Assembly (NCBI GenBank): GCA_945920215.1
Contig: CAMEJM010000007.1
Coordinates: forward strand, 598 to 64,597
Direction: 5' to 3'
From: an uncultured bacterium
GTDB taxonomy: Bacteria; Bacillota; Clostridia; Oscillospirales; CAG-272
DNA: 64,000 nucleotides
This document shows, in pieces, positions 1-19,337 of the stretch (its first letter is position 1; each line of letters opens with the position of its first letter). Below the pieces are notes generated by a model, which worked only from the letters and a program-made list of their open reading frames with translations, was not told the origin of the DNA and made no database searches. Both the position numbers and the translations under genes were made by a program.

Positions 1-405
1 AGCCAGATCAACGCCGCTGCCTCTGCCGCCTTGGTTGTCTCCCAAAACAACGATTCTTGCCGCAACCGTCTCTCCCGCGACCTTGACGGCAACAGAGGAA
101 ACGGGAGCCGCGTTATGCGTGACAACATGCGTGTTGGTAATCGCAAACCCATCCGGGGAGATAAGCAATCCGGAACCGGCAGAGGAACCGCCCTGAAAGG
201 TGCAATTGATTTCGAGAACACCGCCGATGCACTTTTCGTAAATGTCGGCGCCGCCGCCCATCGCCGTCGCTTTCTGCGTCACAAAACTCTTGGGCGTCGG
301 AGCAAAATCAGCGGCGGAAAAGGTCTTTCCGCAGTAAACGCAGCGGTAAGAATCCGGCGCCACCTTCTGCGTACCGCCGCCGCACAGTAAACATTTATAG
401 TCCAT
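1..405 (-). CDS. Zn-ribbon + trypsin-like (chymotrypsin-fold, DegP/S1-type) serine protease; N-terminal 135 aa only, gene runs off the window
   Basis: Absent from the ORF track (no stop in window). My translation from ATG at 405 reads MDYKCLLCGGGTQKVAPDSYRCVYCGKTF (CxxC..CxxC ribbon), then ...SSAGSGLLISPDGFAITNTHVV (protease His-box). A GAGGAG SD lies 8 nt upstream and overlaps the stop of the upstream gene. Confidence 0.7.
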   Translation of the reverse strand, partial: MDYKCLLCGGGTQKVAPDSYRCVYCGKTFSAADFAPTPKSFVTQKATAMGGGADIYEKCIGGVLEINCTFQGGSSAGSGLLISPDGFAITNTHVVTHNAAPVSSVAVKVAGETVAARIVVLGDNQGGRGSGVDLA

Positions 406-417
406 GTTTTTGACTCC

Positions 418-2523
418 TCAATTCGTATTGTCGGCTTCCCACTTTTTCAGGCGTTCGATGTCCGCGCGCTGTACCGTACCGCACACGGATTCCAGCGCAG
501 TGTCAAAGTCTGCCTGACAGATATATTTCTCGTTTGTGTTGATGCCGCGGATAATGGAGATTTCCTCGATTCTATCCATCAGATTGGATACGTCCGCACC
601 GTTGAAGCCCTCTGTCTTCTCCACGACCTCATCGGTCTGCAAATCGTCTCGGATGGTGACAATTCCCTTTTGCGCGATTTTATCGAGGCGGCTCTGTATC
701 ATGTACCGCCTTGCGCCCGCGTCCGGTAATCCCACATAAATACGCGTGCCGAATCTGCCCGGGCGGACAAAGGCGCTGTCAATATCCCACGGTTTATTGG
801 TCGCGGCAATCAGAAACAGGATATGCCCGGTATCTTTCCCGTAGCTCTCAATCCCCTGCAGCTGTGCCAACAGCTCGGAGCGGAGCTGTTTCGCATACTG
901 CGAGCGCGTGTCTTTCGGCGAAATGGAATCCATCTCGTCAAAATAGATCACCGAAACAGGGAAACGCCGCGCCTGTGCAAACAGTGCCCGCACGGCTCTC
1001 TCGGACTGTCCCGCCCCCTGATGTAACAGGTCGGACGGCTTCACGGCGCAGAATTTCGCGCCGATCTCATTCGCGATGGCGGCGGCGATCATGGTTTTCC
1101 CCGTGCCGGGAGGGCCGTACAGCAGCAGCCCGCCGCCGTTCCGCTTGACGTAACCGTCAAACGCCTCCGGATTCTTGAGCGGCAGAAGCACTTTGATCTT
1201 CACGGCTTCTTTCACGCTCTCAAGCCCTGCCACGTCGTCGAAGGACACAACCGGCAGGCGATCCCATTCAAAGCGGAACTCATCCTCGTCTCCGTATGCG
1301 TCCCGCAGCAGCTTCTCCTCCGGGGAATCCGTCTTGACCTCCTCCGGCTTCTGCGGCTTGCTCTCCGGCGCCTTTTCGGTGGGCTTCTCCGTACGCCCGG
1401 TGCCGGCAGCCGTCGACTGCTCTCTGATGCTTTGCGGCAGATCCGCCATCTCAATGGTGGTCATCTCGGCATCGGTCGGGTTCTCCATGTCCGCGATTCG
1501 CTTGGATTGTATGGTGACGATGGTTTCAAAAATGTTCCGCACGCTCCGCGCATTCCCGAAATTCTTATCCCGCTCCGCATATGCCCGGCGGAAATATTCC
1601 TGCATTGTCTTTGCCGCCGTTTCGTTGAGCACATACTGATTTTTGTTTAAGAAGCCTGTGAAAATGCGATAGAGTTCCTCTCCCGTATAATCGGTAAAGC
1701 GTATGTATGTCTTGAAGCGCGAACGCAAGCCGGGGTTGGAATCGATGAATTTCTCCATCAGTTCGTCGTACCCCGCGACAATCACTACCAGATTGGAGCG
1801 ATTGTCCTCCATGGCTTTCAGCAGAGTGTCGATTGCCTCCTGACCGAAGTCATTGCCGCCACCGCCGGCAAGCGTGTACGCTTCATCAATGAACAGCACG
1901 CCGCCGATGGACTTTTTCACCACTTCCTGCGTTTTGAGAGCGGTCTGACCGACATATCCCGCCACAAGGTCGCTGCGGTCCACCTCTACCAGGTGTCCGT
2001 CGCTCAAAATACCGAGCGCGCAGTAAATCTGTGACACAATGCGGGCAACCGTGGTTTTCCCCGTTCCGGGGTTCCCCGTAAACACCATGTGATAGGACAT
2101 TTCGGGAACCGACAATCCGCGCTCCCGGCGCAGCTTGAACACCTTGATCTGATCCACCCAGTCGGATACCTGCTGTTTGACGCCTGCAAGTCCCTCCAGC
2201 TGAAACAGATTCCGGAGAGCTTCTTCAAGAGAAATCTTATCGTTCTCCTGAATCCTGACGTCCGACAGCACGCATTCTTCCTTGCTGCTCGCCTTTTTGC
2301 CGGATTGCGCAGGGATGCTGTCCGCCATCTCAATCAGGCTCTTCGCGCGCGCATATCTGCTTGCTTGCAGATTTCCCGCGCTGTCCTTCGCCATCTTCAG
2401 CATTTGTTCGGCGGCGAGCATATAGTATTTCTTTGCCAAAACATAGTCGCCTTTGCCGTAACTTTCTTTGGCCTTTTTGCTGTACAGCTCAAATGTTTCA
2501 TATAACAGGTCCATGCTTGCCAT
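418..2523 (-). CDS. MIT-like N-domain + tandem AAA+ ATPase (CbbX/SpoVK-type AAA, then classic Vps4/katanin-like AAA)
   Basis: 701-aa ORF with an AAGGAG SD. The N-terminal helical segment AKESYGKGDYVLAKKYYMLAAEQMLKMAK..ASRYARAKSLIEMADSI is MIT-like. Walker A 1 is FTGNPGTGKTTVA, with LFIDEAY and SpoVK-like flanks. After a low-complexity PEK linker comes SFDDVAGLE..LLLYGPPGTGKTMIAAAIANE..VIYFDEMDS..ATNKPWDIDSAFVRPGRF. The C-terminal helix is ADIERLKKWEADN. Confidence 0.8.
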   Translation of the reverse strand: MASMDLLYETFELYSKKAKESYGKGDYVLAKKYYMLAAEQMLKMAKDSAGNLQASRYARAKSLIEMADSIPAQSGKKASSKEECVLSDVRIQENDKISLEEALRNLFQLEGLAGVKQQVSDWVDQIKVFKLRRERGLSVPEMSYHMVFTGNPGTGKTTVARIVSQIYCALGILSDGHLVEVDRSDLVAGYVGQTALKTQEVVKKSIGGVLFIDEAYTLAGGGGNDFGQEAIDTLLKAMEDNRSNLVVIVAGYDELMEKFIDSNPGLRSRFKTYIRFTDYTGEELYRIFTGFLNKNQYVLNETAAKTMQEYFRRAYAERDKNFGNARSVRNIFETIVTIQSKRIADMENPTDAEMTTIEMADLPQSIREQSTAAGTGRTEKPTEKAPESKPQKPEEVKTDSPEEKLLRDAYGDEDEFRFEWDRLPVVSFDDVAGLESVKEAVKIKVLLPLKNPEAFDGYVKRNGGGLLLYGPPGTGKTMIAAAIANEIGAKFCAVKPSDLLHQGAGQSERAVRALFAQARRFPVSVIYFDEMDSISPKDTRSQYAKQLRSELLAQLQGIESYGKDTGHILFLIAATNKPWDIDSAFVRPGRFGTRIYVGLPDAGARRYMIQSRLDKIAQKGIVTIRDDLQTDEVVEKTEGFNGADVSNLMDRIEEISIIRGINTNEKYICQADFDTALESVCGTVQRADIERLKKWEADNTN

Positions 2524-2544
2524 ACGACTCGCTCCTTGCTCCGA

Positions 2545-3111
2545 TCACTCGGACATTCTCTTCTTCAGTGCTTCCAGTTCCTTTTCAATCATCGCGTCGG
2601 TGCTGTCCGCGTCTCCCGCGCCGTTGGAAAGCAATCCCTCCAGTTCCGCGCGATCCTCGGCGGAAGCGGGAGCGCCGGAAGCAAAGGACGCCTCGGTATC
2701 GTCCATAAACTGCTCCATCTGCTCGGTCTGCATCTCGATGCCCATCATCGCCTCACCGAACTGCTCCTGCACGCGGCGGAACTGCTTTTCGTTGGTGAGC
2801 TTCATCATATCCCGGCTCAGATCCCCCATCCCCTTAAGGAACTCGGTGGTCATCGCCGCCATATCCTTCATCTGGGAGGTGATCTCAAAGTTCAGCTTCA
2901 TCTCCGAAATACGCTTGATCTGCATCATGGTCGTACGCAGCGCCGTCAGCGCCAACTCATACTGTGCCGTCAGCCCTTTTTTCTTGGCTTCTTTCCCGGC
3001 TTCAATGTAGCGGAGTTTCTGCTCCTCAAGCTTCTGAATCTGTTTGTTCATCGAGGTGATGGTCTGTTTGACCTTCATTCTCTTCGCCAGTTCTTTTTTT
3101 GTGGAATTCAT
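2545..3111 (-). CDS. ESCRT-III/PspA-superfamily protein, Vps2/CHMP2-like, with acidic tail and MIM1-like C-terminus
   Basis: 188 aa with an AAGGAG SD. It has a basic coiled-coil N-half. The core MTTEFLKGMGDLSRDMMKLTNEKQFRRVQEQFGEAMMGIEMQTEQMEQFMDD resembles the CHMP2 alpha3-alpha5 region from memory. The tail is DADSTDAMIEKELEALKKRMSE. Confidence 0.6.
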   Translation of the reverse strand: MNSTKKELAKRMKVKQTITSMNKQIQKLEEQKLRYIEAGKEAKKKGLTAQYELALTALRTTMMQIKRISEMKLNFEITSQMKDMAAMTTEFLKGMGDLSRDMMKLTNEKQFRRVQEQFGEAMMGIEMQTEQMEQFMDDTEASFASGAPASAEDRAELEGLLSNGAGDADSTDAMIEKELEALKKRMSE

Positions 3112-3123
3112 GTCGGATGCTCC

Positions 3124-3717
3124 TTAACTGTTTGTAGTATCGGTTTTCGCCGCGGCGGCGGTGGAGGACTGCTCCTGTTCATCGGCGATCTGCTCCTCTG
3201 TCTCAAACATGGCAAGCAGCGCGTCGTCGTCCTGCCCCACCCCGTAAATCTCCGAGCTCGGCTCATACGCCTCCTCGATGGAGCGGAAGGTCTCATCCGC
3301 GTCGGTTAATACCTTTTCAGCCGAAACGCGGGTGTTCAGCGCCTGATTGAGGAAACGGGCAAGTCCCTTTTGGTCGCCGAGCAAGCCTCCGAGAGACTGC
3401 TTGGGCGTTTTCGCAAAAAACTGATTGTCATCGATCGCGCGCTTGAGCTTCTGCAACATCTGAATGTTGTACATCAGATACATGATTCGCTGTACGTCCT
3501 GCGCGCGCTCGGCTTTCAGGGCGTTGACCCTCTTTGCCCAAAGCAGCTTGACGTCCCGCACGGTTTCCGTTCTGCCTTTTTGCATCAGCGCGTCGATCTT
3601 CTTCTGCTTTTCGTCCAGCCCTGCCTCGAGGTCTGCGGATTCCTTTTCCAGCTTGCAGATGGAATCCACCACTTCCTCGCGGGTCAGCTTCTGAAATTTA
3701 CTCTTAAAAGGCCACAT
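3124..3717 (-). CDS. ESCRT-III/PspA-superfamily protein, Snf7/CHMP4-like
   Basis: 197 aa with an AAGGAG SD. The helical hairpin region is LDEKQKKIDALMQKGRTETVRDVKLLWAKRVNALKAERAQDVQRIMYLMYNIQMLQKL. The acidic C-terminus is GQDDDALLAMFETEEQIADEQEQ (compare the CHMP4 DEDELMAELEELEQ-type tail, from memory). Confidence 0.6.
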   Translation of the reverse strand: MWPFKSKFQKLTREEVVDSICKLEKESADLEAGLDEKQKKIDALMQKGRTETVRDVKLLWAKRVNALKAERAQDVQRIMYLMYNIQMLQKLKRAIDDNQFFAKTPKQSLGGLLGDQKGLARFLNQALNTRVSAEKVLTDADETFRSIEEAYEPSSEIYGVGQDDDALLAMFETEEQIADEQEQSSTAAAAKTDTTNS

Positions 3718-3728
3718 TGCGTTTCTCC

Positions 3729-4058
3729 TTATTCAACCGTTTTTCTTTCGGCGATTGCAATGTGAATGTCTTTCAGCAGCCCCTGCGCCTTTTCGTTCGC
3801 AGTCTCGTCCTTGCATTTGATAAGGGCGATTTTGAGGTCTTCAAGCAAATTTTTGATTTTTTTATCGCAGTCATACACTTTAGACTTTGCGGAGGGCATC
3901 AGGTATTTCAGCTCTTCCTGCAAATCCCGCAGCGCTGTGCGGAAGTTCTCGTCCTCGGTCTGTGCAATCAGGACTTCGACTGTTTTCGCGTTGACCTCCA
4001 CAAGGTCATAATCCTGCCGGTTTGCCTCAGCGGCTTTTTTCTTCTTGAAAAACAACAT
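3729..4058 (-). CDS. Small all-helical hypothetical protein (109 aa), operon member
   Basis: GAGGAGG SD. It sits 25 nt after the upstream gene and 11 nt before the next. Charged heptad-like composition; no family recognised. Confidence 0.5.
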   Translation of the reverse strand: MLFFKKKKAAEANRQDYDLVEVNAKTVEVLIAQTEDENFRTALRDLQEELKYLMPSAKSKVYDCDKKIKNLLEDLKIALIKCKDETANEKAQGLLKDIHIAIAERKTVE

Positions 4059-4083
4059 GATATGTATCCTCCTCAGTCTTTTC

Positions 4084-5109
4084 TCAATTCAGTTTTGTTC
4101 CGCACGCACTGCAAAAAGCCGTGTCGCCGGGATACGTCTTGCCGCACTTGGGGCAGGTCACGGTCGCAGCGGCAAGCTTCTTACCGCAGCCGGGGCAGAA
4201 TGCCGCGCCGTTTTCATAGCTGTGACCGCAATTGGGGCAGAATGCGCCGGCCGCGGTTGCGCCGCCCTTGCTTCCCACCACCTTCAGGACCTCGTAGTAT
4301 GCCGCTTTGTCCTCCTGCTCGAGGCGCTTCAGATACATCTCGCGCTCCCACTGCTTGTCGTCCAGGCGCTCCAGTTCTGCAAGATATTCTTTCATCTTGT
4401 TGCGCTGCTGGATTTCGTCCGCAACATTCTCGATCTTCTCCATATCCTCGGCGGAAATATTGAACTTTTCGATGATGAAGTCCACCAGACCGATGCCCCA
4501 GTCCCTCTCAAACTTCTCGCTGAGCATCTTACCTACCTGGACCGCAATGGTCTTGCGGTTTGCGTCAAACTGGTCGTAGGTCAGCTCCTCCTTGGCAACC
4601 ACAGTCAGGAAAACGTCCGCGAAATCGTTGACCACAGCTGCCGAGAAACGGTCGCGGAACCGCTCCAGATCGAATTCCTTGGTTGCGCCCACCACCTTGC
4701 GGAAGAACTGGTTGGCGTTGGTGATGCTGATGCCGAACTGCCCGCGCGCACCCACCTCGATCACCTTGTTGCTGATTTTATCGCGGTAAGTCACCTTATC
4801 GGGGGTCCCCCAACGAATGAGAACGCTGGTTTCTTTCGGCACATAGATGATCTCGACCGAAACCCCGTTCTTCCATGCTTTCATCTCTTCTTTGCTTTCG
4901 AAAACGGGATATGTACCGCTCTGGTAAACACGGAAATCCCCGCCGCCCTTGATCACGAACGCCATGTGCGTAAAGGGCACCTCGAACATTGCGTCCTTGG
5001 TCGTCACCACGTCGCCGACGCGGACAAACAGAATGCTGTTGTCGTTCACAGACGCGTGACAAATATTTTGCTCAAAACGGATGATTTGCTGTTTTTTACT
5101 GCCGAACAT
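4084..5109 (-). CDS. SPFH (stomatin/prohibitin/flotillin-like) protein with C-terminal double Zn-ribbon (COG4260, B. subtilis YdjI-like)
   Basis: 341 aa with an AAAGGAG SD. The body matches the virion-core/SPFH-like family as I remember it. The C-terminus is FCPNCGHSYENGAAFCPGCGKKL..TCPKCGKTYPGDTAFCSACGTKL (4 x CxxC). Confidence 0.75.
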   Translation of the reverse strand: MFGSKKQQIIRFEQNICHASVNDNSILFVRVGDVVTTKDAMFEVPFTHMAFVIKGGGDFRVYQSGTYPVFESKEEMKAWKNGVSVEIIYVPKETSVLIRWGTPDKVTYRDKISNKVIEVGARGQFGISITNANQFFRKVVGATKEFDLERFRDRFSAAVVNDFADVFLTVVAKEELTYDQFDANRKTIAVQVGKMLSEKFERDWGIGLVDFIIEKFNISAEDMEKIENVADEIQQRNKMKEYLAELERLDDKQWEREMYLKRLEQEDKAAYYEVLKVVGSKGGATAAGAFCPNCGHSYENGAAFCPGCGKKLAAATVTCPKCGKTYPGDTAFCSACGTKLN

Positions 5110-5232
5110 AATTAAAACTCCTTTATTATGTGCATTTTAATTAAAAGTTTTAATTTTGGAGGATGGAAGCGCCCGGCGCCGTATTCTTCTGCGGGCGGCG
5201 CGCTTCCCGTAGGGTGCTGTTTGTTGCCGCGG

Positions 5233-8200
5233 TTATTTGAGAGACGCGGGATCATTGTAGAACCCAATGAGCCACAGCACTTCCTTAAAAGTAATCAAGC
5301 CTTTGCCAACCGCAACCTTGTAATATCGGAACGGGAATGCGTTGAACACCTCAAGCGGTATGTAGTCCTTGAAGTCGTCGTAGGTGTACAACCCCCACTC
5401 TGCAATATCCGCAGCCATCAGGGCTTCGTCGTACTTCATATTTTCGTCGTACGCAAACAGATTCACCATACCTGCCGACAAGGTCAGCATACGGTCCGCA
5501 ATTAGGTTGATATGCCATACGGAGGCAGGGTTGTAAACCTTCATGAATTCGTTTGTTACGGTGACTTCGTTGAGAACAACGGTTCTGCTGACGGCTTCCC
5601 CGTTCTCATACGCCACGGATACAAACCTGTGTCCGACAAACCCGTCGGCGTTGTCTGCGTTGATATACACGTATTGATTCAAGTCCCTGTCAAACAACCC
5701 GTGCTCGCCGACAATCCGAAGCTCGCCTCCGTCGGAGAAGGACAGATTGACGACGTCGCGAAGAGCTGCTTCTTCTCCCGCGTGTACATTGACCAATATC
5801 GGTGAGGCCTCATATCTGCCTGTTTCGTGGTTGAAAACAAGCAGAATATCACCTGTCTGCAACTCCTCTACCGCTTTGGTGGTCCCGTCCGCCAGCATAA
5901 TCCGCGTGCCCTCGGCAAGACAGCTGGTATCCCAGCTGGAAGCGCTCACCGTTGTGTTTTTATTCAACGTAAAGGTGTATGGATTGCTGACGCTGTTTCC
6001 GTTCACGGAGAAAGACTGCCCCGAGACATCCGAATAAGAGAAGGTCGCGCTTGCAGTCACGCGAGTGCCGAGCGGCAATGTACCGTCCGTTTTCCACTGA
6101 GACTTCAGTGCTTCACTCTCAAACTCGAGCATCACTTGCGCATAGCTCTCCGAAATTTTCAGAGTGCACCACTGTTCTTCCGAGAACTGCGGAACAGCGG
6201 TAACCCAATGGTCGGGGGTATACCACTGCCCCTCCCGGTACAGTTCACCGTCTATCATCCAACCCTCGAAAACATACTTGACGATATAGTCGTTTTGCGA
6301 CGAATCCGCTTTGGTATCCGCGGGAAGTTTCAGGCGCTCGCCCTTATTCACATATTCCATGGCGATAGTGCCGTCCTCACACTCGAACCGGACTTTGTTT
6401 TTGCTCACCAGATTGGGAATTGCCTGAGAGAGATTCAACGAAACAATGACAAGCGATAACAGAGCCACAAGCACCGCAGCTTTTCCGTACTGCTTTTTAT
6501 TCTGCTTGACATACGATTCATATGTCTCGTTGGAGGACATACCGTAATTCAGTCCCAGCGCAGTTCCTACTGCCGCAATGCAGAACACAATATAGAAGAA
6601 TCGCGCCAACCCTACCGAGAGGCCTCCCGTGGCATTGATTTTATCCATCAGGCCGTGCGACTTGGTGAATACATCAATCCCGATCAGAACGGCAAGCACA
6701 GCGGGGAGAAAGAAAATGCAGGATCTGACAACCCGCCCCCTAACGTAGCGTTTTCTTGCTTTTTCCTCGCTGGTTCTGTTTCTTTCCCCGGCTGCTGCCA
6801 TGCGATGATTGAGATCATCCGGTGAACAAGTGCTGTCCCCAACGGTAACGTAGAGCAGATTTTCGCAGGAAGAAAACACATTCAATCCCAAGTTTCTAAC
6901 ATTCTTCGGAATGTTTACGGTTGCAAGTTTCCGACAGTAGGCAAACGCCTCGTTTCCAATGCTCCTGACACTACCTGGTACGGTAACGGAAACCAAATTG
7001 GTGCAGTCGAAAAACGCTCGGAATCCGATATGTGTCACTGTGTCCGGAATCGTAACGGAGCGCAGAGTTTTGCAACCTTGAAACGCCTCGGCGCCGATTC
7101 CCACAACGCGCTTGCCGTCCACATGGGAGGGAACTGTGAAGTCACAGTCAGAGCGCCGGGAAAGGGCTTCTCTCACGCCGCCTATGATTTCCACGCCTTC
7201 CCCCTTATTCCGGTATTTCAGCGTGCGCATCAGTTCCGCCTCGACCGCCAACACGCGAGAGTCACCGTTTCCAATGGACATATAGTATTCGTATTGGAAA
7301 TCGCTGGCGCAGTTTTTGGCGTTCTGGAAGTCCTGCATATCGTACAGCTTGTTGTGCCGCTTCAGCAACGCCAGGTCACTGTCCGCTTTCATGTGGCATT
7401 TCAGAAGTCCCCAGTGCGCCTGCGCGGATGTCTCATCCCGCGCCAGATACTCCTTGAAGTAAACCTCTGCATTCTTGTAGTCTCTTTCTGCCACGCACAG
7501 CTCTGCCAATTCCATGAGGAATGCGTTGACTCTTTCTTCCTCACCCAAAGCGTCATATGTGCCGACAACGGTTTCCACAAATATCTTCGCCGCTTTTTTA
7601 TTATATGAAACCTGATACTTTACCATCCGTTCCAGGCTTCCCATCGCCGCCGAGTTCTGCTTCTTATAGTCACAGATGATTATGCGCTCTATGATTTCAG
7701 CCGGCGTCAGTTCCGACAGATGCTTTGTCGCCGCATCCTCGGCAGGCGTTGCCTCCAGTGAAAACGCGGTTCGTTCGATCTCATCCGTTTTCAGGCGGCA
7801 CTCCAACAGATGCAGATAATCCTTGCCCTGCCGCTCTGCGGATGCCAGTTCCTCATAGTATTTCTGCGCCAAATCATAATGCCCGCACCGCCGCAGCGTG
7901 TTTGCATATTTCCTCATGACCGACAGACATTGCATACGGTTTTCCTCGGAGAACAACCGCCTTGCTTGAGCAAAGACCGATTCGCTCTCCTTTGGACTCG
8001 TCTCCGCATTGAAACAACAACGTCTCAGAAGTGAAGTCAACGCCACATCCACACGCTTATCGTCCAGATATTTCAGTATCTCATCATACAGCGGCTGGAT
8101 CTTCGCCCACTTCTCATCTGCGTCAAGACAGGCGAGCATTGCGTCCACGCATGCCCATGAGAATTGCTCGTCATTGGAGCATTCAATGGCGCGATGAAAT

Positions 8201-9489
8201 TCTGCAAAAGGAATACTCTTGGCTTTGAAAATCGTATCTGGCAGCTTGTCTTCCAACGAACACTTCACCATACAGAGGAACCTGCCCCAATGAGCTTCCG
8301 CATTATTCTGATTCATGCGCAGCACATTGTCGTATTCAATCATCGCATTTTTGAAAGACGAATGATTGCGCTGGTTGCGGGCACTCTGTAAGGCTCTTTC
8401 TTCCCCGGCGGAGATCTGAATCTCGCTCCCGCCTTTACCGCCGATGACCACGCGCTCCCGCGTTCCGCTGTATTCAAAGCCTGTCGCGTCATTCGTAAAG
8501 TCGGTCTGCACCGTCCGCTTCTTGATTTTGGAGGCAAGCCCCTTACTGCTCTTGACAAAGCTCAGCTTCGACTCAAGCTGACTGAACATATCCCCCTTGA
8601 ACATATCCACGCTCGGCAATTGCTTTTCTGCCAGCGCCGGGGGAAGCACCGGAAAGCTGTGGTTGTATACGTAGATCAGGGACACCTTATTCTTTTTGCC
8701 CTTGTCCATGTAGTAGAGATACCTTTTCCACTCGTTCTCTACCCACTGTGCCTCCAGATATTCCTTTTTGCTCCCCAGCAATATCATCGCCTGCGAGGTT
8801 TGCAGGGCTTTCAGAATCCGCGGCTCGTATTTTTTCCCCTCTATCTCGTGGTCCTTTCCGATCGATTCCGGAGAGAAAAACACACGGTATTTGCCTTTCA
8901 GGTGTTCATATATCTCGCGTGCCTTTTCATAGTCGTCAGTGTAAACCGTCCGGACCTCGCCATCCGCCCTCGTCACCTGTTCAGACATCTTGAATGAAAT
9001 GAAAATGTCATAGGAGGTCTCTTTCGCCACCAACTCAAAAAACTCTTTGAGCAGCGCATCCAGTTCCCGCCCCTTTTCCTCGTAGTAATTTCTGTCTTCT
9101 TCACTCGGCGCGTACTTCAGCGCGTTTGTGTAATAGGGGTTTTCCAGCACCGAGATCCTCTCGTCGTAGGTGTAACTGAAAAAGGTCGGTTTGGTTTCAC
9201 CCGTCTCCTTTTCCTTTACATACACCACTCCCAGCGACGACAGCAGCGCCTGCCAGCTTGCTTCACTGCTCTCCGGCTGCTTCTCAAGCAAGGCCTTGCA
9301 CAATTCCTCTGCCTTGATGAACTCCCTGATCTGACGGCGGTTTGTAATGTCCGCGAGCTCCGCAGAGCAGGACTCCGCCCCGCTCCGATACGCTCTCCCG
9401 CAATACACGCAGGTTGGGATGCCCGTCCTTGCATTCGGTTTTAACTCCCCACCGCAGGTCAAACATTTTGTGATTACTTCCTGTCCCAT
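5233..9489 (-). CDS. 1418-aa multidomain protein: Zn-ribbon / TIR / TPR-like helical repeats / BspA-type LRR / 3 TM helices / B-repeat-like ectodomain / Hint domain + 70-aa tail
   Basis: Start moved to ATG 9489 (GGGGAGAG SD 6 nt upstream), giving MGQEVITKCLTCGGELK..CVYCG. TIR: YDIFISFKMSE..YRVFFSPESI..AMILLGSKKEYLEAQWVENEWKRY. LRR: VGIGAEAFQGCKTLRSVTIPDTVTHIGFRAFFDCTNLVSVTVPGSVRSIGNEAFAYCRKL. TM segments lie at aa ~921-941, 956-980 and 1003-1022. Hint: CLAEGTRIMLADGTTKAVEELQTGDILL..IVGEHGLF..VYNPASVWHINLIA. Confidence 0.8.
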   Translation of the reverse strand: MGQEVITKCLTCGGELKPNARTGIPTCVYCGRAYRSGAESCSAELADITNRRQIREFIKAEELCKALLEKQPESSEASWQALLSSLGVVYVKEKETGETKPTFFSYTYDERISVLENPYYTNALKYAPSEEDRNYYEEKGRELDALLKEFFELVAKETSYDIFISFKMSEQVTRADGEVRTVYTDDYEKAREIYEHLKGKYRVFFSPESIGKDHEIEGKKYEPRILKALQTSQAMILLGSKKEYLEAQWVENEWKRYLYYMDKGKKNKVSLIYVYNHSFPVLPPALAEKQLPSVDMFKGDMFSQLESKLSFVKSSKGLASKIKKRTVQTDFTNDATGFEYSGTRERVVIGGKGGSEIQISAGEERALQSARNQRNHSSFKNAMIEYDNVLRMNQNNAEAHWGRFLCMVKCSLEDKLPDTIFKAKSIPFAEFHRAIECSNDEQFSWACVDAMLACLDADEKWAKIQPLYDEILKYLDDKRVDVALTSLLRRCCFNAETSPKESESVFAQARRLFSEENRMQCLSVMRKYANTLRRCGHYDLAQKYYEELASAERQGKDYLHLLECRLKTDEIERTAFSLEATPAEDAATKHLSELTPAEIIERIIICDYKKQNSAAMGSLERMVKYQVSYNKKAAKIFVETVVGTYDALGEEERVNAFLMELAELCVAERDYKNAEVYFKEYLARDETSAQAHWGLLKCHMKADSDLALLKRHNKLYDMQDFQNAKNCASDFQYEYYMSIGNGDSRVLAVEAELMRTLKYRNKGEGVEIIGGVREALSRRSDCDFTVPSHVDGKRVVGIGAEAFQGCKTLRSVTIPDTVTHIGFRAFFDCTNLVSVTVPGSVRSIGNEAFAYCRKLATVNIPKNVRNLGLNVFSSCENLLYVTVGDSTCSPDDLNHRMAAAGERNRTSEEKARKRYVRGRVVRSCIFFLPAVLAVLIGIDVFTKSHGLMDKINATGGLSVGLARFFYIVFCIAAVGTALGLNYGMSSNETYESYVKQNKKQYGKAAVLVALLSLVIVSLNLSQAIPNLVSKNKVRFECEDGTIAMEYVNKGERLKLPADTKADSSQNDYIVKYVFEGWMIDGELYREGQWYTPDHWVTAVPQFSEEQWCTLKISESYAQVMLEFESEALKSQWKTDGTLPLGTRVTASATFSYSDVSGQSFSVNGNSVSNPYTFTLNKNTTVSASSWDTSCLAEGTRIMLADGTTKAVEELQTGDILLVFNHETGRYEASPILVNVHAGEEAALRDVVNLSFSDGGELRIVGEHGLFDRDLNQYVYINADNADGFVGHRFVSVAYENGEAVSRTVVLNEVTVTNEFMKVYNPASVWHINLIADRMLTLSAGMVNLFAYDENMKYDEALMAADIAEWGLYTYDDFKDYIPLEVFNAFPFRYYKVAVGKGLITFKEVLWLIGFYNDPASLK

Positions 9490-9691
9490 GCAACTCTCCC
9501 CGGTCCATATTGATTTTTCGTATAAAAAGCAAAAAAGCGTATCCGAAAAAGGGTACGCAGTAAAAACGCCCGCTCCCCCATCCTTTGCCCATCTAATACA
9601 CTGCTTGTTAAGCATCGGCGGAAGAAAACAGCTTTCCGCTTGCAATTTGCGATCCGGAGCAGCGCATTTTCAAGTTCACATTTCTGTTATA

Positions 9692-9720
9692 ATGTTACCA
9701 TTTTGTTGCATACTTGTCAA
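9692..9720 (-). promoter_or_regulatory. Candidate sigma-A promoter for the TIR/ESCRT-like operon
   Basis: On the minus strand: TTGACA (9720-9715), 17 nt, TAACAT (9697-9692) preceded by TGg. It lies in an AT-rich intergenic region, about 200 nt upstream of ATG 9489. Confidence 0.4.
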
Positions 9721-9835
9721 TAATATCTGTATTTTATTTATATAAATATACCGTGCCTGCGGTGCGCGCGGGCGGGCGCGAGAGACCCGTTTGCCCGTTC
9801 GTCTCCGTTTTGCGGAAAGGTATCTGTCAAAATGC

Positions 9836-9866
9836 AAAACGGTCTCCCGCAAGGAAAGACCGTTTT
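9836..9866. terminator. Hairpin terminator downstream of the DUF898 gene (bidirectional-looking)
   Basis: aaaacggtct / agaccgtttt form a 10-bp stem with an 11-nt loop. U-rich flanks sit partly inside the stem. Confidence 0.5.
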
Positions 9867-9882
9867 GGTTCCGAAATACCGG

Positions 9883-10194
9883 TTATTGTGCGACAGGGGT
9901 TGTATGGGTGTGCTTGACCACCCATTTTTTCAGATTGATGCCCATCCAGAAGCTGTAAATGCCGAGGGTGATCAAGGTCAGCAAAAACCACTTGATATAA
10001 TTGCCGAACAGTTGTCCCCCGGTGCCGTCAAAGGTCAGCTGCACGCCGTCGATCACGGTATGCTTCACATACCATCTCTCCTTGAAGCAGATCGCCCAAG
10101 GCGTGCCGATCCCCAGCGTCAACAGCGTGATAAAAAACTGCGCGATGCCTACCCCGATAAGTCCTAAAAGTCCGCCGGTGAATTTGGATTCCAT
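9883..10194 (-). CDS. DUF898/YjgN-family small membrane protein
   Basis: 103 aa with two hydrophobic hairpins. FDGTGGQLFGNYIKWFLLTLITLGIYSFW is typical of the family. GGGAGG SD. Confidence 0.7.
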   Translation of the reverse strand: MESKFTGGLLGLIGVGIAQFFITLLTLGIGTPWAICFKERWYVKHTVIDGVQLTFDGTGGQLFGNYIKWFLLTLITLGIYSFWMGINLKKWVVKHTHTTPVAQ

Positions 10195-10416
10195 ATGTTC
10201 CTCCCGATGTCAGTATTATATCTTACGGACAAGCCGTCTGATACCGCACTCTGATATTGCTCTGAAACTAAAATAACGGATAGACAGCCCGGTGTCAATG
10301 CATATCCGCACTTTTTGACGAACCGGGGAGAAAAAATCGGAAGAACAAACAAATCCGATACCGGAATCCGTACATTTTTCACAAAAGAGGTCTTTCGGCA
10401 AGATGTCTGACGCGCC

Positions 10417-10710
10417 TCAGCGGAATTCTTTTTCGGTTGCCTTATCGTCGAGGGGGATTTCGAAATCGTCGGGATTCTCCTCCATTTTGTGGGCGATCCG
10501 TTCGGTTTCTTTCTTTTCTTTCTCCTCCTCGCACAGCTGCCAGAACAGATATCCGCCGCCCACCGCCTCAAACGCGGAGACAGCCAGAAACGCCTGTGCC
10601 AGACTGCGGCGCTTTGCCGCCTGCAAAAGGAACAGGATAAAGAACGTCAGCGCCTGCACCAGCAGCGCAACCGCCGTGATCAGGCGGGATTTTCTCAGTA
10701 ACTTTCCCAT
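10417..10710 (-). CDS. Small membrane protein, hypothetical
   Basis: 97 aa with two TM segments and an acidic tail. It starts 14 nt after the prfB stop. Confidence 0.5.
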   Translation of the reverse strand: MGKLLRKSRLITAVALLVQALTFFILFLLQAAKRRSLAQAFLAVSAFEAVGGGYLFWQLCEEEKEKKETERIAHKMEENPDDFEIPLDDKATEKEFR

Positions 10711-10723
10711 ATCGGAGCCTCCT

Positions 10724-11833
10724 TTATTTTTTGGCGTTCATGGTCAGATATGCGTTGATAAAGCCGTCGATGTCTCCGTCCATGACCGCTTGAATGTTGC
10801 CGTTTTCAAAGCCCGTGCGGGTGTCCTTGGCGAGCGTATAGGGCATGAATACGTAGGAACGGATCTGCGCCCCCCATTCGATGTTGGTTTTCACACCCTG
10901 AATATCGGATATTTTGTCAAGGTGCTCCCGCACTTTGATTTCCATCAGCTTGGAGCGCAGCATCTTCATGGCAGTCTCTTTGTTCTGCAACTGCGAACGC
11001 TCTGTCTGGCATCCTACCACAATGCCGGTGGGCAGATGGACAATGCGGATGGCGGAGTCGGTCTTGTTGATGTGCTGCCCGCCGGCGCCGCTCGAACGGT
11101 GCGCCGTGACTTCAATATCCTCGGGGCGGATTTCCACGCTGTTGTCATCCTCAAATTCCGGCATCACCTCCACCGATGCAAACGAGGTCTGCCGTCTGCC
11201 GGAGGCGTCGAACGGCGAGATGCGTACCAGCCGATGCACGCCGTTTTCGCTCTTGAGGTAACCGTATGCCCACGGCCCTTCGATCATAATCGTGGCGGAT
11301 TTGAGGCCTGCTTCGTCTCCGTCCAGCCAGTCGATGAGTTTGACGTTGTAGCCGTGCGCTTCGCCCCAGCGGCAGTACATACGGTACAGCATGGACGCCC
11401 AGTCCTGCGCCTCGGTGCCGCCGGCGCCGGGGTGGAACGAAAGAATGGCGTTGTTGTAGTCGTACTCTCCTGTGAGCAGAGTCTCAAGGCGCATACGCTC
11501 GGCTTCTTTTGCGATGAATTCCACCTCCGCGCGTATTTCGTCGACCGTGCTCTCGTCGTTTTCCTCGATCGACATTTCGATCAGCACGCCCGCGTCCTCA
11601 TAGCGGCGCACCAGCGCTTCATATTCCTCGATAGTGTCTTTGTGCTGTTTGAGCTTCTGCAGGATTTTCCCCGATTTTTCCTGGTCCGACCAGAAATCGG
11701 GGGCGTAGGTCTTGGCTTCCAACTCCTTGACCTCCTCCGCCATGGCGTCAATATGCAACGATTCCCGCAGTTGGCGCACGGGCTCCTCCAGGGTTGCCAG
11801 CTGTCTTTTCGCTTCTTCGAGCGCGATAATCAA
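10724..11833 (-). CDS. prfB: Peptide chain release factor 2
   Basis: SPF tripeptide (ISPFDASGRRQTSFA) and GGQ motif (SGAGGQHINKTDSAIR). Start set at TTG 11833, 7 nt after GGGAGGA. There is a continuous frame, so no +1 frameshift site. Confidence 0.9.
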   Translation of the reverse strand: MIIALEEAKRQLATLEEPVRQLRESLHIDAMAEEVKELEAKTYAPDFWSDQEKSGKILQKLKQHKDTIEEYEALVRRYEDAGVLIEMSIEENDESTVDEIRAEVEFIAKEAERMRLETLLTGEYDYNNAILSFHPGAGGTEAQDWASMLYRMYCRWGEAHGYNVKLIDWLDGDEAGLKSATIMIEGPWAYGYLKSENGVHRLVRISPFDASGRRQTSFASVEVMPEFEDDNSVEIRPEDIEVTAHRSSGAGGQHINKTDSAIRIVHLPTGIVVGCQTERSQLQNKETAMKMLRSKLMEIKVREHLDKISDIQGVKTNIEWGAQIRSYVFMPYTLAKDTRTGFENGNIQAVMDGDIDGFINAYLTMNAKK

Positions 11834-11861
11834 GGTTGTATCCTCCCAAATGCTTACACAG

Positions 11862-11890
11862 ATAGTATGGACGCGCACGGCGCGGGTCAA
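11862..11890 (-). promoter_or_regulatory. Candidate promoter for prfB
   Basis: On the minus strand: TTGACC, 17 nt, TACTAT. Confidence 0.45.
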
Positions 11891-11960
11891 ACGGCGGCGC
11901 TATTCATTTAATATTATCATATCTTTTCGGAGTTGTAAAGGGTGACGCCGTTATTTTTCC

Positions 11961-11989
11961 TTGACATCGGGTATCATAATCGGTATAAT
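11961..11989 (+). promoter_or_regulatory. Sigma-A type promoter for the DUF1858-trmK-nif3 operon
   Basis: TTGACA (11961-11966), 17 nt, TATAAT (11984-11989). Confidence 0.65.
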
Positions 11990-12036
11990 CATAGTGTTAA
12001 AACAGAAAGGAGCGCGGAGTATTTCCGCATACAAAT

Positions 12037-12237
12037 ATGGTTGTCACGAAAGATATGATTATCGGAGACGTGCTGGACGTCGCCCCCGAAACCGCAGAGT
12101 TCTTCTTTGAGATCGGGATGCACTGCCTCGGCTGCCCCCATTCCCGCGGGGAAAGCATTGAGGACGCCTGCCTCGTACACGGCGCAGACCTCGACGCTCT
12201 GCTCGAAAAAATCAACGCCGCAGTGGCAGATAAATAA
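12037..12237 (+). CDS. DUF1858 / hybrid-cluster-protein-associated redox disulfide domain protein
   Basis: 66 aa containing GMHCLGCPHSRGESIEDAC..HG.DLD.LL, the family signature. Confidence 0.8.
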   Translation: MVVTKDMIIGDVLDVAPETAEFFFEIGMHCLGCPHSRGESIEDACLVHGADLDALLEKINAAVADK

Positions 12238-12238
12238 A

Positions 12239-15785: not shown

Positions 15786-15810
15786 TAAGTGTTGCACTTC
15801 ACTTGACAAT

Positions 15811-16572: not shown

Positions 16573-16650
16573 ATCGCTTTTCCCCTGTTTCTTGTTTGTG
16601 TGGTAACTACATTATAACAGGTTTGCGGTATGAGTGTTTTCTTTTTTCAT

Positions 16651-16721
16651 GTGTTGCACTTGATAGTATAATTCACCGTTTTTTCTTTTTCCAAGTGTTG
16701 CACTTGATAGTATAATTCACC
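16651..16721. repeat. Two perfect 27-bp direct repeats (gtgttgcacttgatagtataattcacc), 17-bp spacer
   Basis: Copies at 16651-16677 and 16695-16721. A related copy gtgttgcacttcacttgacaattcac lies at 15789-14 in the same orientation. Confidence 0.9.
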
Positions 16722-16727
16722 CTGATT

Positions 16728-16757
16728 TAAAAAATGCCAGCACAAAAGTGCTGGCAT
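16728..16757 (-). terminator. Rho-independent terminator after the DUF4926 gene
   Basis: atgccagcac / gtgctggcat form a 10-bp stem with a 4-nt loop, followed by TTTTT on the minus strand. Confidence 0.7.
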
Positions 16758-16939
16758 TTCGATAAGATGATATGCATATCACAAATTAACATATTTGTCA
16801 ATAGGTTTTTGCAATAATTATTGAAAATCTATTGCAAATTTTGAAAAATATGATATAATAAGTATACGGTTAAGTGGTGTGCTTTGGCATATCACCCTGC
16901 ACCAGGAAGCTATTGGCGTAGTTTCTTGGTGCTTTCTTG

Positions 16940-17128: not shown

Positions 17129-17138
17129 AAAAACCTCC

Positions 17139-19310: not shown

Positions 19311-19337
19311 AATAAATCTCCTTTCTCTGTTAGTAGT

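Follow-up and report, generated by a model that had tools for sequence, protein, structure and literature searches.

A predicted one-off fusion of a TIR receptor unit and a Hedgehog-like Hint unit in a membrane protein from a gut Clostridia bacterium

The gene located at positions 5233-9489 of the window (the whole 64,000-nucleotide stretch of DNA analysed here) encodes a genuine polytopic membrane protein of a gut Clostridia bacterium, and comparison with its relatives indicates that this 1418-aa protein arose, as a one-off, by fusion of units found separately elsewhere, two in number. The predicted Unit 1 (residues 1-900) is a cytoplasmic arrangement of zinc ribbon, TIR, TPR and LRR that belongs to a large Clostridia family, and the predicted Unit 2 (residues 900-1418) is a membrane protein made of three TM helices, an ectodomain, a Hint domain and a tail. 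Our preferred reading, to which we assign roughly an even chance, is that the extracellular Hint domain would serve for constitutive maturation and the TIR would act together with a membrane operon; the functions in it are all ones that we infer. The features of the gene are the following:

5233..9489 (-), whole gene, 1418 aa plus stop, with the order Znr-TIR-TPR-LRR-3TM-ectodomain-Hint-tail (ORF and translation)
9692..9720 (-), promoter-like site upstream of the gene: TTGACA, 17 nt, TG-extended TAACAT (consensus match)
9400..9465 (-), N-terminal CxxC...CxxC zinc ribbon, residues 9-30 (four Cys invariant in 115 relatives)
8590..9012 (-), TIR domain, residues about 160-300 (Pfam TIR_2 and profile match to plant TIRs)
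8731-8733 (-), codon of the catalytic-type Glu253 (invariant, aligned with the Glu of NADase TIRs)
7150..8502 (-), TPR-like helical region, residues about 330-780 (TPR_19, TPR_14 and TPR_12 matches)
6820..7137 (-), BspA-type LRR (LRR_5), predicted cytoplasmic here (Pfam)
6418..6732 (-), three TM helices, about 920-1024, with a basic stretch ahead (hydropathy and K+R counts)
5923..6417 (-), predicted extracellular beta region, 1025-1189: a Flg_new-like stretch and a second beta domain (conservation in relatives)
5470..5922 (-), Hint domain, residues 1190-1340 (AlphaFold and Foldseek; conservation in 133 sequences)
5236..5469 (-), 78-aa helical tail, residues 1341-1418 (conserved family, obligate partner of this type of Hint)

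The ORF is single and uninterrupted, running for 4.25 kb without a stop from an ATG at 9489 that has the Shine-Dalgarno-like GGGGAGAG directly ahead. Two public contigs carry the identical 1,418-residue protein, and each of its domains keeps its catalytic and structural motifs. The promoter-like site is a consensus match only, and the region surrounding it is not enriched in such sites. The nucleotide coordinates given to the domains by the initial annotation were right to within a few codons, and its calls of zinc ribbon, TIR, TPR, LRR, three TM helices, Hint and tail were correct as judged by Pfam, conservation and AlphaFold.

Regarding the N-terminal half, the zinc-ribbon residues C9, C12, C27 and C30 were invariant in 115 relatives. 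A TIR domain with a catalytic-type Glu had been proposed, and this was borne out: Pfam TIR_2 matched residues 185-300 (E=1.3e-8, exceeding the gathering score), and the family profile matched the plant TIR NADases RUN1, RPV1 and Roq1 (E about 1e-5), aligning WVENEW with their WCLDEL. Both W249 and E253 were invariant in 115 sequences. These data point to a TIR that is probably of the enzymatic, NAD-cleaving type, sharing its fold and catalytic-position Glu with enzymatic TIRs such as those of plant RUN1/Roq1, Thoeris ThsB and AbTir. Animal TIR domains serve as scaffolds, and on this precedent the domain could instead lack enzymatic activity and act as a scaffold for assembly, like the TIRs of animal TLR adaptors, nucleating an SPFH/ESCRT-III-like complex with the help of the protein-binding TPR, LRR and zinc-ribbon modules; however, the invariance of the Glu and of the Trp preceding it, and the fact that the profile matched best to plant TIRs that are enzymes, make such a role distinctly improbable.

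The TPR-like region is collinear with that of the family members (44-64% identity); it contains the strings AEAHWG (397-402) and AQAHWG (689-694), and TPR_19 and TPR_14 narrowly exceed the Pfam cut-off at about 658-702. It is followed by LRR_5 at residues 796-885 (E=1.7e-23). In the closest relatives a TM helix lies ahead of the LRR, and this same helix is deleted in the 1418-aa protein.

The three hydrophobic segments (~920-938, 956-974 and 1006-1024) are preceded by KARKRYVRGR and are homologous to the corresponding region of stand-alone 3TM proteins. Counts of K+R were 12 inside vs 5 outside for an N-in/C-out orientation, and the trend was likewise found in four of five stand-alone homologues. 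Together with the signal-bearing proteins that carry the Hint-tail pair elsewhere, this bias supports a predicted topology with the N-terminus inside and the C-terminus outside, in agreement with the earlier placement of the Hint domain outside and of TIR, TPR and LRR inside. The beta region that follows is conserved in L032_567 and in proteins of ~600 aa (P0318, P0291 and P0266). AlphaFold was confident in it only for about 1105-1189, while residues 1025-1100 gave pLDDT <50 and no match to Pfam Flg_new; the description of this stretch as a B-repeat-like beta domain was the sole weak domain call, and the region is conserved in stand-alone relatives.

At the level of the fold the Hint domain was clear. 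Its AlphaFold model (pLDDT >90) matched in Foldseek the RecA mini-intein (TM 0.83), the Hedgehog Hint 1at0 (0.75) and also BIL domains, among them the C. thermocellum BIL structure 2lwy. No Pfam Hint-family model reached the cut-off (sub-threshold only, E=0.004), and PT-HINT gave no match. The predicted nucleophile is Cys1190 and the block-B His is His1263. Among 133 Hint sequences the first Cys was present in 99% and the block-B His in 100%, an acidic Asp/Glu occupied the position equivalent to Hedgehog D46 in 84%, and none had a terminal His-Asn, the domain ending here in LTLSAG. Of the Cys/His/Thr blocks anticipated by the initial annotation, the Cys and His were recovered, and the usual block-B Thr is replaced by Val or Ile (V-G-E-H in this protein). 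In addition, the subfamily of the window protein carries N-V-H at a position that is Asp in Hedgehog and in most members, and therefore adduct transfer may differ or be absent in this protein.

The tail, predicted by AlphaFold to form four helices, belongs to a family of 2180 clusters at E<=1e-3, located in nearly all cases at the extreme C-terminus, and 132 of 132 tail-bearing proteins also had the Hint domain. When the Hint-tail representatives of at least 500 aa starting with Met were considered, 78 of 117 had an N-terminal signal or anchor, and the carriers in a sample of nine included subtilases and LRR/Flg_new proteins. We therefore infer that Hint and tail form a widespread Hog-like C-terminal autoprocessing module, mainly of gut-metagenome Clostridia, whose carriers are mostly secreted-looking. 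By these sequence features the pair has the layout of the Hedgehog "Hog" module, and is neither an intein nor a polymorphic-toxin cassette: both are C-terminal modules of secreted proteins with a Cys start, a block-B His, no C-terminal His-Asn, an obligate extension after the Hint that is helical and about 75 aa long and, in most bacterial Hint-tail members, an acidic residue at the Asp46 position. The module described here differs in being bacterial, in the Val or Ile that takes the place of the TxxH Thr, in the N-V-H of the window protein's subfamily, and in a tail whose sequence shows no detectable resemblance to the sterol-recognition region of Hedgehog (SRR/ARR). With BIL and PT-HINT domains it shares a bacterial origin, an occurrence in secreted or surface proteins and auto-cleavage without splicing (predicted here), whereas those domains are internal or precede variable toxins and this Hint is always terminal with the same tail.

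In polymorphic toxins Hint domains lie ahead of toxin modules (PMC3482391), and the analogy drawn earlier would have the Hint free the 78 residues of the tail for delivery to competitors, either as a toxin or as an effector peptide, an idea to which a faint PT-VENN match in one relative could be added. The analogy did not survive, and we regard it as extremely improbable: one conserved domain, and no variable cassette, makes up the tail across more than 2000 clusters, no immunity-like gene follows it here or in L081, L083 and L085, Pfam PT-HINT does not match, and the Hint lacks a C-terminal Asn or other evident means of cleavage on its C-terminal side.

The conclusion that two units have been joined derives from their separate occurrence. 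No homologue covering more than 63% of the 1418-aa protein was found, and no second TIR-Hint fusion appeared among 145 tail-bearing representatives. Stand-alone 3TM-ecto-Hint-tail proteins do exist, in L032 as a separate gene inside the same type of operon. In the Znr-TIR-TPR family, 93 of 114 members have a TM helix and 81 an odd number of them; most are TLR-like, with a cytoplasmic TIR, a single TM helix or three of them, and an ectodomain that varies between LRR, Flg_new and propeller, and soluble TIR-TPR-LRR proteins are a normal variant. Most relatives share with Toll-like receptors an ecto-LRR or other sensor, a TM segment and a cytoplasmic TIR; in contrast to those systems the TIR is N-terminal here, behind a zinc ribbon and followed by TPR, and the LRR of the window protein is predicted on the cytoplasmic side.

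As the fusion is unique, linking TIR to Hint may serve no dedicated purpose. A rival view, an accident of recent recombination that attached the Hint unit by chance and gave the fusion little or no selected function, in which the operon's working TIR partner would be a 716-aa TIR-LRR gene, is rather unlikely. The unique architecture, the loss of the ancestral TM helix that stranded the LRR in the cytoplasm, the second TIR gene of the operon, the heavy shuffling of these loci and the frameshifted Hint-tail genes of three other loci would fit it; the 4.25-kb ORF with all domain motifs intact, the identical sequence on two contigs and the normality of soluble TIR-TPR-LRR proteins in the family would not.

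Hint chemistry is normally a single-turnover maturation and not a regulated switch, and eukaryotic autoproteolytic receptors of comparable logic are the GAIN-domain receptors and Notch. With the latter as precedents, the initial annotation's self-cleaving trigger, in which envelope damage or phage contact acts on the extracellular Hint and a signal passes through the three TM helices to the TIR and then to ESCRT-like genes, could draw on the presence of a predicted outside Hint and inside TIR in one polypeptide and on a gene co-oriented with an SPFH/ESCRT-III-like operon, with no evident terminator between. The proposal nevertheless loses ground and is in our view markedly unlikely: the fusion is unique, the Hint unit is elsewhere a separate protein (as in L032) or sits on subtilases and adhesins without a signalling part, its reactions are single-turnover steps, and most TIR family members have different ectodomains or none.

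The co-orientation itself, and an ESCRT-III-fold product among those of the downstream genes, were as described earlier. These genes are:

4084..5109 (-), SPFH protein (Band_7_1) with coiled coil and double zinc ribbon, 341 aa, downstream operon gene (Pfam)
3729..4058 (-), small coiled-coil protein s109 (conserved in 30/36 cassettes)
3124..3717 (-), coiled-coil protein s197 (conserved in 33/36 cassettes)
2545..3111 (-), ESCRT-III-fold protein s188 (AlphaFold/Foldseek and weak Pfam Snf7)
418..2523 (-), double AAA+ ATPase, D1 CbbX-like, D2 Cdc48/VAT-like (Pfam, PDB search, sequence)
1..405 (-), 5' part of a Zn-ribbon trypsin-like protease that runs off the window (L001 19085-19870)
L001 20015-22165, outside the window after the protease gene: second Znr-TIR-LRR gene, 716 aa

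Five helices make up the s188 model, helices 1 and 2 forming a long pair, and its best Foldseek matches were CHMP2A/3, CHMP1B, Asgard ESCRT-IIIB, CdvB, Snf7 and Vipp1, with probabilities mostly of 0.75-0.99 but weak E-values (0.06-0.6). Pfam Snf7 matched 7 of 17 orthologues, weakly and below threshold, and an HMM search of the PDB gave no ESCRT-III match; on the Foldseek and Pfam data we call s188 ESCRT-III-like. Pfam and hhalign gave no match for s109 and s197. Both ATPase domains have Walker A and B motifs. Of the ESCRT-like genes expected downstream, s188 alone among the three small proteins showed ESCRT-III similarity, and the ATPase is not specifically Vps4-like.

This operon was conserved in 36 non-redundant loci, with the TIR-TPR gene adjacent in 24, and is apparently without earlier description. 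Its loci are heavily shuffled: they contain several paralogues, and the positions of the genes vary. A TIR gene was present in only 10 of 18 well-flanked operons, and so it is an accessory rather than a core part; the SPFH gene is kept beside the TIR family, and the pairing extends to a distant Intestinimonas member. A CxxCGG...CxxCG ribbon like that of the TIR protein heads 21 of 21 operon trypsin-like proteases. PADLOC assigned none of the TIR, SPFH and small proteins to a known defence model, and bacterial TIR defence systems differ further in that no ThsA, STING, CBASS or Argonaute partner accompanies this TIR. The BcTir/Tpr anti-phage pair of Bacillus cereus resembles it by description in combining TIR chemistry and TPR in a Firmicute (bioRxiv 10.1101/2023.05.26.542521), but is a two-gene soluble system without membrane parts, zinc ribbon, SPFH or ESCRT-III-like genes.

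In Firmicutes, SPFH/Band-7 and Zn-ribbon proteins partner with PspA; in PspA-YdjGHI, as here, an ESCRT-III-superfamily protein has as its neighbour an SPFH protein (Band_7_1) that also contains a coiled coil and zinc ribbons (PMC11237479, PMC10936438), and an AAA+ ATPase in the operon is shared with archaeal ESCRT-III/Vps4 (Cdv). In contrast to both, s188 is as similar to Snf7, CHMP and CdvB as it is to PspA, the ATPase combines a CbbX-like and a Cdc48-like domain, no MIT domain was detected, and TIR receptors and a Zn-ribbon protease are undescribed in those systems. Budding by ESCRT-III is directed away from the cytoplasm, and archaeal ESCRT forms vesicles (PMC7619361), so the SPFH, ESCRT-III-like and AAA+ proteins might bud membrane outward with the Zn-ribbon TIR membrane proteins and protease as cargo, carried inside extracellular vesicles or exposed on them, consistent with one ribbon type on otherwise unrelated operon proteins. 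Adhesin-like LRR_5 or Flg_new ectodomains, the Hint-processed one included, would then be targeting or adhesion parts. This reading is quite unlikely: in bacteria, those relatives of ESCRT-III that have been studied to date serve membrane repair (PMC7619361), no ESCRT-I/II-like or ubiquitin-like components turned up in the operon loci, soluble TIR variants occur, and the invariant Glu suggests catalysis in the producer's cytoplasm.

Returning to constitutive maturation, after membrane insertion Cys1190 would attack the bond that joins it to Ser1189, an N-to-S acyl shift in which His1263 assists, and the thioester would be resolved by water or by a nucleophile that the helical tail positions. 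A 229-aa Hint-tail fragment would be shed, and the C-terminus of the ectodomain would then be either free or covalently linked with a molecule of the envelope; such cleavage would be a constitutive maturation rather than a regulated switch. On the other side of the membrane the TIR may cleave NAD+ upon clustering with the SPFH/ESCRT-III-like machinery, for which the zinc ribbon common to the TIR proteins and the protease is a likely docking element. The most likely role would be that of an envelope-stress or anti-phage module on a membrane-repair-type operon. In this protein, a predicted TIR receptor module and an outward-facing Hedgehog-like module, the latter common on bacterial surface proteins, stand on the same chain.

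The reverse strand of the window carries at 5233-9489 a single unbroken ORF of 1418 codons that begins with an ATG directly preceded by GGGGAGAG. The identical protein was found on two public contigs, one of which belongs to the Clostridia MAG GCA_019972995.1 and runs past the window start. Every domain listed in the initial annotation of this window protein was found where it had been placed: all four Cys residues of the N-terminal ribbon were invariant in 115 relatives, Pfam detected TIR_2 at residues 185-300 (35.7 bits against a cut-off of 28) and LRR_5 at residues 796-885 (exceeding its gathering score), TPR_19 and TPR_14 were marginally over their gathering scores, and three hydrophobic segments (~920-938, ~956-974 and ~1006-1024) lie downstream of the basic KARKRYVRGR. 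The beta ectodomain was also present, although its description as B-repeat-like (residues 1025-1100) is weak, as Pfam found no Flg_new repeat in this stretch and the AlphaFold model of it was of low confidence. An NCBIfam search of the window protein returned partial, far sub-threshold matches only.

The window-protein gene is the first of its operon, whose elements are listed here with the features that the products show in the conserved neighbourhood of the family:

9720-9692, reverse strand: promoter-like site with a TG-extended -10, upstream of the window-protein gene
5233-9489, reverse strand: window protein (Zn ribbon, TIR, TPR, LRR, three TM helices, ectodomain, Hint at residues 1190-1340, tail at 1341-1418)
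4084-5109, reverse strand: SPFH (Band_7_1) protein with a coiled coil and a double Zn ribbon
3729-4058, reverse strand: s109, first of three small coiled-coil proteins, ~110 aa
3124-3717, reverse strand: s197, second small coiled-coil protein, ~200 aa
2545-3111, reverse strand: s188, third small coiled-coil protein, ~190 aa
418-2523, reverse strand: double AAA+ ATPase, ~700 aa
1-405, reverse strand: 5' part of the gene for a trypsin-like protease, ~255 aa, often present in the neighbourhood

A scan of the coding strand revealed no terminator-like site between the window-protein gene and the SPFH gene, and the search for an internal start that would allow separate expression of the Hint unit led to Met896, which has no SD-like sequence. 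Upstream of the operon, a 103-aa ORF (9883-10194, reverse strand) matches only the first ~64 of the 336 positions of the DUF898 profile, and it therefore probably represents a truncated gene for a membrane protein. Just downstream of this ORF, at ~9820-9860 of the reverse strand, a putative GC-rich hairpin with a T run behind it was read by eye; it is absent from the list of the terminator scan, and the promoter-like site of the operon comes after it. The operon (~400-9500) is somewhat GC-poor (0.50-0.56). The region at 15800-20000 has a GC content of 0.42 vs ~0.58 elsewhere. It contains a fragment of an rve integrase together with an HTH gene and small genes of the DUF4417, DUF6883 and DUF4926 types, and probably represents the remnant of a mobile element.

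None of the whole-protein homologues covers more than 63% of the window protein. In a locus from a Christensenellaceae MAG (L032), the same operon contains a separate gene whose 567-aa product comprises a Zn ribbon, a basic linker, three TM helices, an ectodomain and the Hint-tail, and shares 46% identity with residues 920-1418; proteins of ~600 aa having a basic N-terminus and the same body also exist. The closest relatives of residues 1-900, on the other hand, carry either one TM helix (P0008, P0012 and P0014) or three (P0003) between the TPR and the LRR, which places their LRR outside the cell. This segment ahead of the LRR is deleted in the window protein, and therefore its LRR precedes all TM helices, in contrast to the TLR layout of P0008, P0012 and P0003, where the ecto-LRR lies outside the TM. 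Because of the stand-alone proteins and of the pre-LRR deletion, sequence comparison identifies the window protein as a Znr-TIR-TPR-LRR unit, now of the soluble type, joined to a complete unit of three TM helices, ectodomain and Hint-tail. Soluble TIR-TPR-LRR proteins are normal in these loci, and one of 716 aa belongs to the window operon itself. The fusion could have been a recombination accident with little or no selected function, a reading that we find unlikely since all the domains are intact. No further TIR-Hint fusion and no Zn ribbon were found among 145 tail-bearing representatives.

The 716-aa protein, a second Znr-TIR protein with a coiled coil and LRR_5, is encoded just past the window start (20015-22165 in L001, the same operon on a longer contig); it closes the operon after the trypsin-like protease and is followed by spoIIAA/AB/sigF-like genes.

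The AlphaFold model of residues 1025-1418, based on an alignment of 19 sequences, reached pLDDT values >90 over Hint and most of the tail, for which four helices were predicted. For the Hint domain Pfam returned nothing but sub-threshold matches, and a Foldseek search of the PDB retrieved the RecA mini-intein (TM 0.81-0.83, rmsd 2.5), Hedgehog (1at0 and 6tyy, TM 0.75) and BIL domains, including that of C. thermocellum (2lwy, TM 0.77). A profile of the tail alone matched 2180 clusters at E<=1e-3 when 1.84 billion representative proteins were searched; in the best 150 of these clusters the tail nearly always formed the very C-terminal end of proteins 500-3900 aa long, and among the matches listed Hint was immediately upstream in 132 of 132 representatives of at least 260 aa. 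The tail is covered by neither a Pfam nor an NCBIfam model, and two Hint-tail members bear the NCBI names "S8 family serine peptidase" and "hypothetical protein".

An alignment of 133 Hint sequences upheld two of the expected catalytic residues and not the third: position 1 is Cys in 99% (Cys1190 in the window protein) and the block-B His is found in 100%, mostly as E-H (His1263), whereas the block-B Thr is replaced by Val or Ile. In these sequences Hint ends with M-P-G-G or L-S-A-G (as LSMPGG or LTLSAG) and never with His-Asn. The position that we tentatively equate with Hedgehog Asp46, the acidic residue required for adduct transfer, by motif spacing and the Hedgehog sequence and not by structural superposition, is Asp or Glu in 84% of the 133 and reads N-V-H in the window subfamily (N1234-V1235-H1236).

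These data allowed us to discard two familiar contexts for a Hint domain. An intein was rejected, as there is no C-terminal His-Asn and the conserved tail that follows Hint closes the protein, leaving no C-extein. The initial annotation had pointed to polymorphic toxins, in which Hint releases a C-terminal module; this reading was rejected too, since the tail is a single conserved family and not a variable toxin, and no immunity gene follows. The next gene encodes SPFH in the window operon, and L081, L083 and L085 have unrelated genes downstream. The Hog arrangement of Hedgehog is described in PMC2362128, and the window module is Hog-like in its terminal Hint, its N-terminal catalytic pair, the lack of C-terminal cleavage means, the obligate helical extension of ~75 aa and its presence on a secreted protein. 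As judged from alignment and model, the predicted layout of the Hint-tail is that of Hog and differs from both the intein and the polymorphic-toxin layouts. We found no description of the Hint-tail in the literature searched and no name for it in the databases searched, and to that extent this widespread Hog-like module is undescribed.

In each of the three other loci that were inspected (L081, 5464-11086; L083, 6363-10450; L085, 6415-8045) a frameshift alone parts the Hint-tail ORF from a large surface-protein ORF upstream. In L083 it falls within Hint, and in both L081 and L085 within the Flg_new repeat ahead of Hint; these could be pseudogenes, assembly errors or cases of phase variation.

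In a sample of nine, the carriers of the Hint-tail included subtilases, LRR_5/Flg_new proteins and one trypsin-like protein, and 78 of the 117 Met-initiated tail representatives of at least 500 aa start with a signal or anchor sequence. This distribution bears on the main proposal of the initial annotation, a self-cleaving trigger at the surface whose regulated cleavage would be relayed across the membrane to the TIR. Two points weaken the case for such a trigger: the fusion is unique, and the Hint-tail also occurs on enzymes and adhesins devoid of any signalling part.

The orientation assumed in that proposal, with Hint outside and the TIR part in the cytoplasm, did gain support. Lys and Arg residues number 12 on the predicted inner side (N-flank and loop 2) and 5 on the outer side (loop 1 and C-flank), and the same bias was observed in 4 of 5 stand-alone homologues of the 3TM unit. 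In agreement with an N-in/C-out arrangement, the Hint-tail is elsewhere mostly found on proteins with N-terminal signal peptides or anchors, and the N-terminus of the window protein has a Cys4 ribbon as well as an NAD-dependent domain. The predicted topology with the strongest support is N-in/C-out.

A phmmer search of the PDB with the single TIR sequence was uninformative, and a family profile built from 20 sequences matched the plant TIRs RUN1, RPV1 and Roq1 in the same database (E 1e-5 to 5e-5). The W-V-x-N-E-W of the family was aligned on the W-C-L-D/E-E-L of the plant TIRs, with E253 opposite the Glu of RUN1 WCLDEL, which we take to be the catalytic E100; Glu253 and Trp249 were invariant in 115 family N-termini. 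Together, the TIR_2 match, the match to the plant proteins and the invariant E253 substantiate the earlier call of a TIR domain with Glu at the catalytic position, and neither loss that would have refuted it, that of the profile or that of the Glu, is observed. The TIR of the window protein would then probably have NADase-type chemistry; that it serves as a pure, non-enzymatic scaffold is unlikely because the Glu is invariant.

At least one TM helix is predicted after the TIR in 93 of 114 Znr-TIR relatives; 81 of these 93 have an odd number of helices and 66 have at least 150 aa past the last one. The ectodomains of the family include LRR_5, Flg_new, RCC1-like, DUF6273 and periplasmic-binding domains, and its predicted architecture is a TLR-like layout. 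The gene neighbourhood of the family is kept across differing chromosomal settings. A scan of species-representative genomes yielded 36 non-redundant cassettes, the named ones from Clostridia or Christensenellaceae MAGs, with a TIR-TPR gene adjacent in 24, at least two TIR-TPR copies in 6 and a trypsin-like protease in 21; all 21 proteases start with a CxxCGG...CxxCG ribbon like that of the TIR proteins. Among the 18 loci flanked by 7 kb or more on each side, 10 carried the TIR-TPR gene, whose position inside the cassette was variable. Almost all the carriers found here are uncultured MAGs. The culturable species Intestinimonas butyriciproducens encodes a distant Znr-TIR-TM member of 875 aa, present on many contigs, directly upstream of a Band_7_1 gene, the other cassette genes being absent. 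With this minimal TIR-SPFH pair (10001-13768 in L086/L087) in view, TIR-SPFH is the most persistent link.

In one relative, the gene that immediately follows the TIR-TPR-LRR gene encodes an ADP-ribosylglycohydrolase (L002, 14855-15676; L003, 5781-6602), which could process TIR-derived ADP-ribose products. PADLOC v2 was applied to the TIR protein together with six neighbours; neither the TIR protein nor SPFH nor any of the small proteins matched a model of anti-phage defence, and the ATPase drew generic AAA matches only (IetA, TRIP13).

The genes downstream had been described as ESCRT-like. Pfam Snf7 aligned collinearly with s188 at E=0.39 and was sub-threshold in 7 of 17 s188 orthologues (best E 0.02), and an s188 HMM profile retrieved from the PDB designed helical proteins only and no ESCRT-III. 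The AlphaFold model of s188 (43 sequences, mean pLDDT 70) consists of five helices, a long first pair forming a would-be hairpin and three more, and 13 of its 14 best Foldseek matches were ESCRT-III or Vipp1 (the latter in ranks 11-14), with probabilities mostly of 0.75-0.99 and E of 0.06-0.6. The ESCRT-III matches comprised CHMP2A-CHMP3, CHMP1B, Asgard ESCRT-IIIB, Sulfolobus CdvB, Loki CHMP4-7 and Snf7, and PspA ranked lower. The model makes s188 a probable member of the ESCRT-III superfamily, an assignment of moderate strength. To our eyes, its last helix (IEKELEALKKRM) and the preceding acidic stretch resemble MIM-type C-terminal motifs, by means of which ESCRT-III proteins bind their ATPase. 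Since hhalign detected no similarity of s188 to s197 and s109, or between these two, we do not call all three ESCRT-III-like; the earlier description suits s188, by its probable fold, and extends neither to s197 and s109 nor to a Vps4 ATPase. The N-termini of s197 and s109 are hydrophobic-basic (MWPFKSK and MLFFKKKK, respectively) and could be membrane-binding.

The Walker motifs of the ATPase are intact in both D1, which is CbbX-like, and D2, which is Cdc48/VAT-like. We dropped the label Vps4-like because the protein has two AAA domains and its best structural relatives are Cdc48/VAT and CbbX, Vps4 being outside the best 60 PDB matches. An N-terminal MIT domain, guessed from sequence, was likewise dropped, as Pfam was blank even at E up to 10. 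The ATPase is not a member of the Vps4 family, and it could do a job similar to that of Vps4.

A second operon variant was observed in L043, L045-L048, L050, L052, L053, L056 and L059 (~8600-13300 in each). It begins with a free s188-like gene, after which most loci have a gene in which an s188-like domain is fused to a CbbX-like AAA (532-667 aa). Next come genes for a separate ~375-aa AAA and for a trypsin-like protease that is longer than usual, and some loci add a shorter SPFH; this variant represents a direct ESCRT-III-like-to-AAA+ fusion in bacteria. In L045 a TIR-TPR-LRR gene adjoins it. Band-7 and Zn-ribbon partners and two-AAA proteins have been reported near PspA, with TIR unmentioned (PMC11237479, PMC10936438). 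According to a 2025 review, which does not mention TIR, bacterial ESCRT-III systems appear to lack a Vps4-like ATPase (PMC7619361), whereas in the loci described here the predicted ESCRT-III-fold protein is always next to a classical-clade AAA+ ATPase, and fused in the variant.

Domain order, conserved catalytic-type residues, fold, fusion origin and operon conservation rest on direct results; as to function, we infer the following scheme from sequence, predicted structure and gene context. Cys1190, with His1263, would carry out an N-to-S acyl shift at the Ser1189-Cys1190 bond, either water or a tail-held nucleophile would resolve the thioester, and a 229-aa Hint-tail fragment would be released to the outside in what would be constitutive maturation. 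We regard autoprocessing by Hint as reasonably likely, and the transfer of an adduct by the Hint-tail as doubtful. On the cytoplasmic side, the TIR would cleave NAD+ once clustered, the common Zn ribbon would dock the TIR proteins and the protease onto an SPFH/ESCRT-III-like assembly, and the operon would handle membrane damage or phage attack. This role in defence or repair is put forward tentatively; a vesicle or cargo-sorting role of the operon is possible, though unlikely. In a bolder and quite improbable version, the Hint-tail would be the bacterial counterpart of Hog, covalently anchoring the C-termini of surface proteins to an envelope molecule independently of sortase; the ectodomain of the TIR protein would be tethered to the wall, and separation of wall and membrane, whether caused by phage attack, by damage to the wall or by lysis from without, would be sensed mechanically and passed to the TIR and the ESCRT-III-like repair or suicide operon.

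In summary, the parts of this system are of known kinds (TIR, Hint, SPFH, ESCRT-III-like and AAA+), and both the window protein itself and the operon link between a TIR receptor and SPFH/ESCRT-III-like/AAA+ proteins are undescribed in the literature and databases searched. Our results point to a large unnamed family of bacterial membrane proteins, in which a variable ectodomain and TM helices are combined with an enzyme-type TIR, tied to an SPFH/ESCRT-III-like/AAA+/protease operon; if this is a defence or repair system, it would join TIR immunity to membrane remodelling in bacteria. Furthermore, the Hint-tail, with its >2,000 clusters, is a candidate for a bacterial analogue of Hedgehog autoprocessing and may provide a new route by which the surface proteins of gut Clostridia are processed or anchored.
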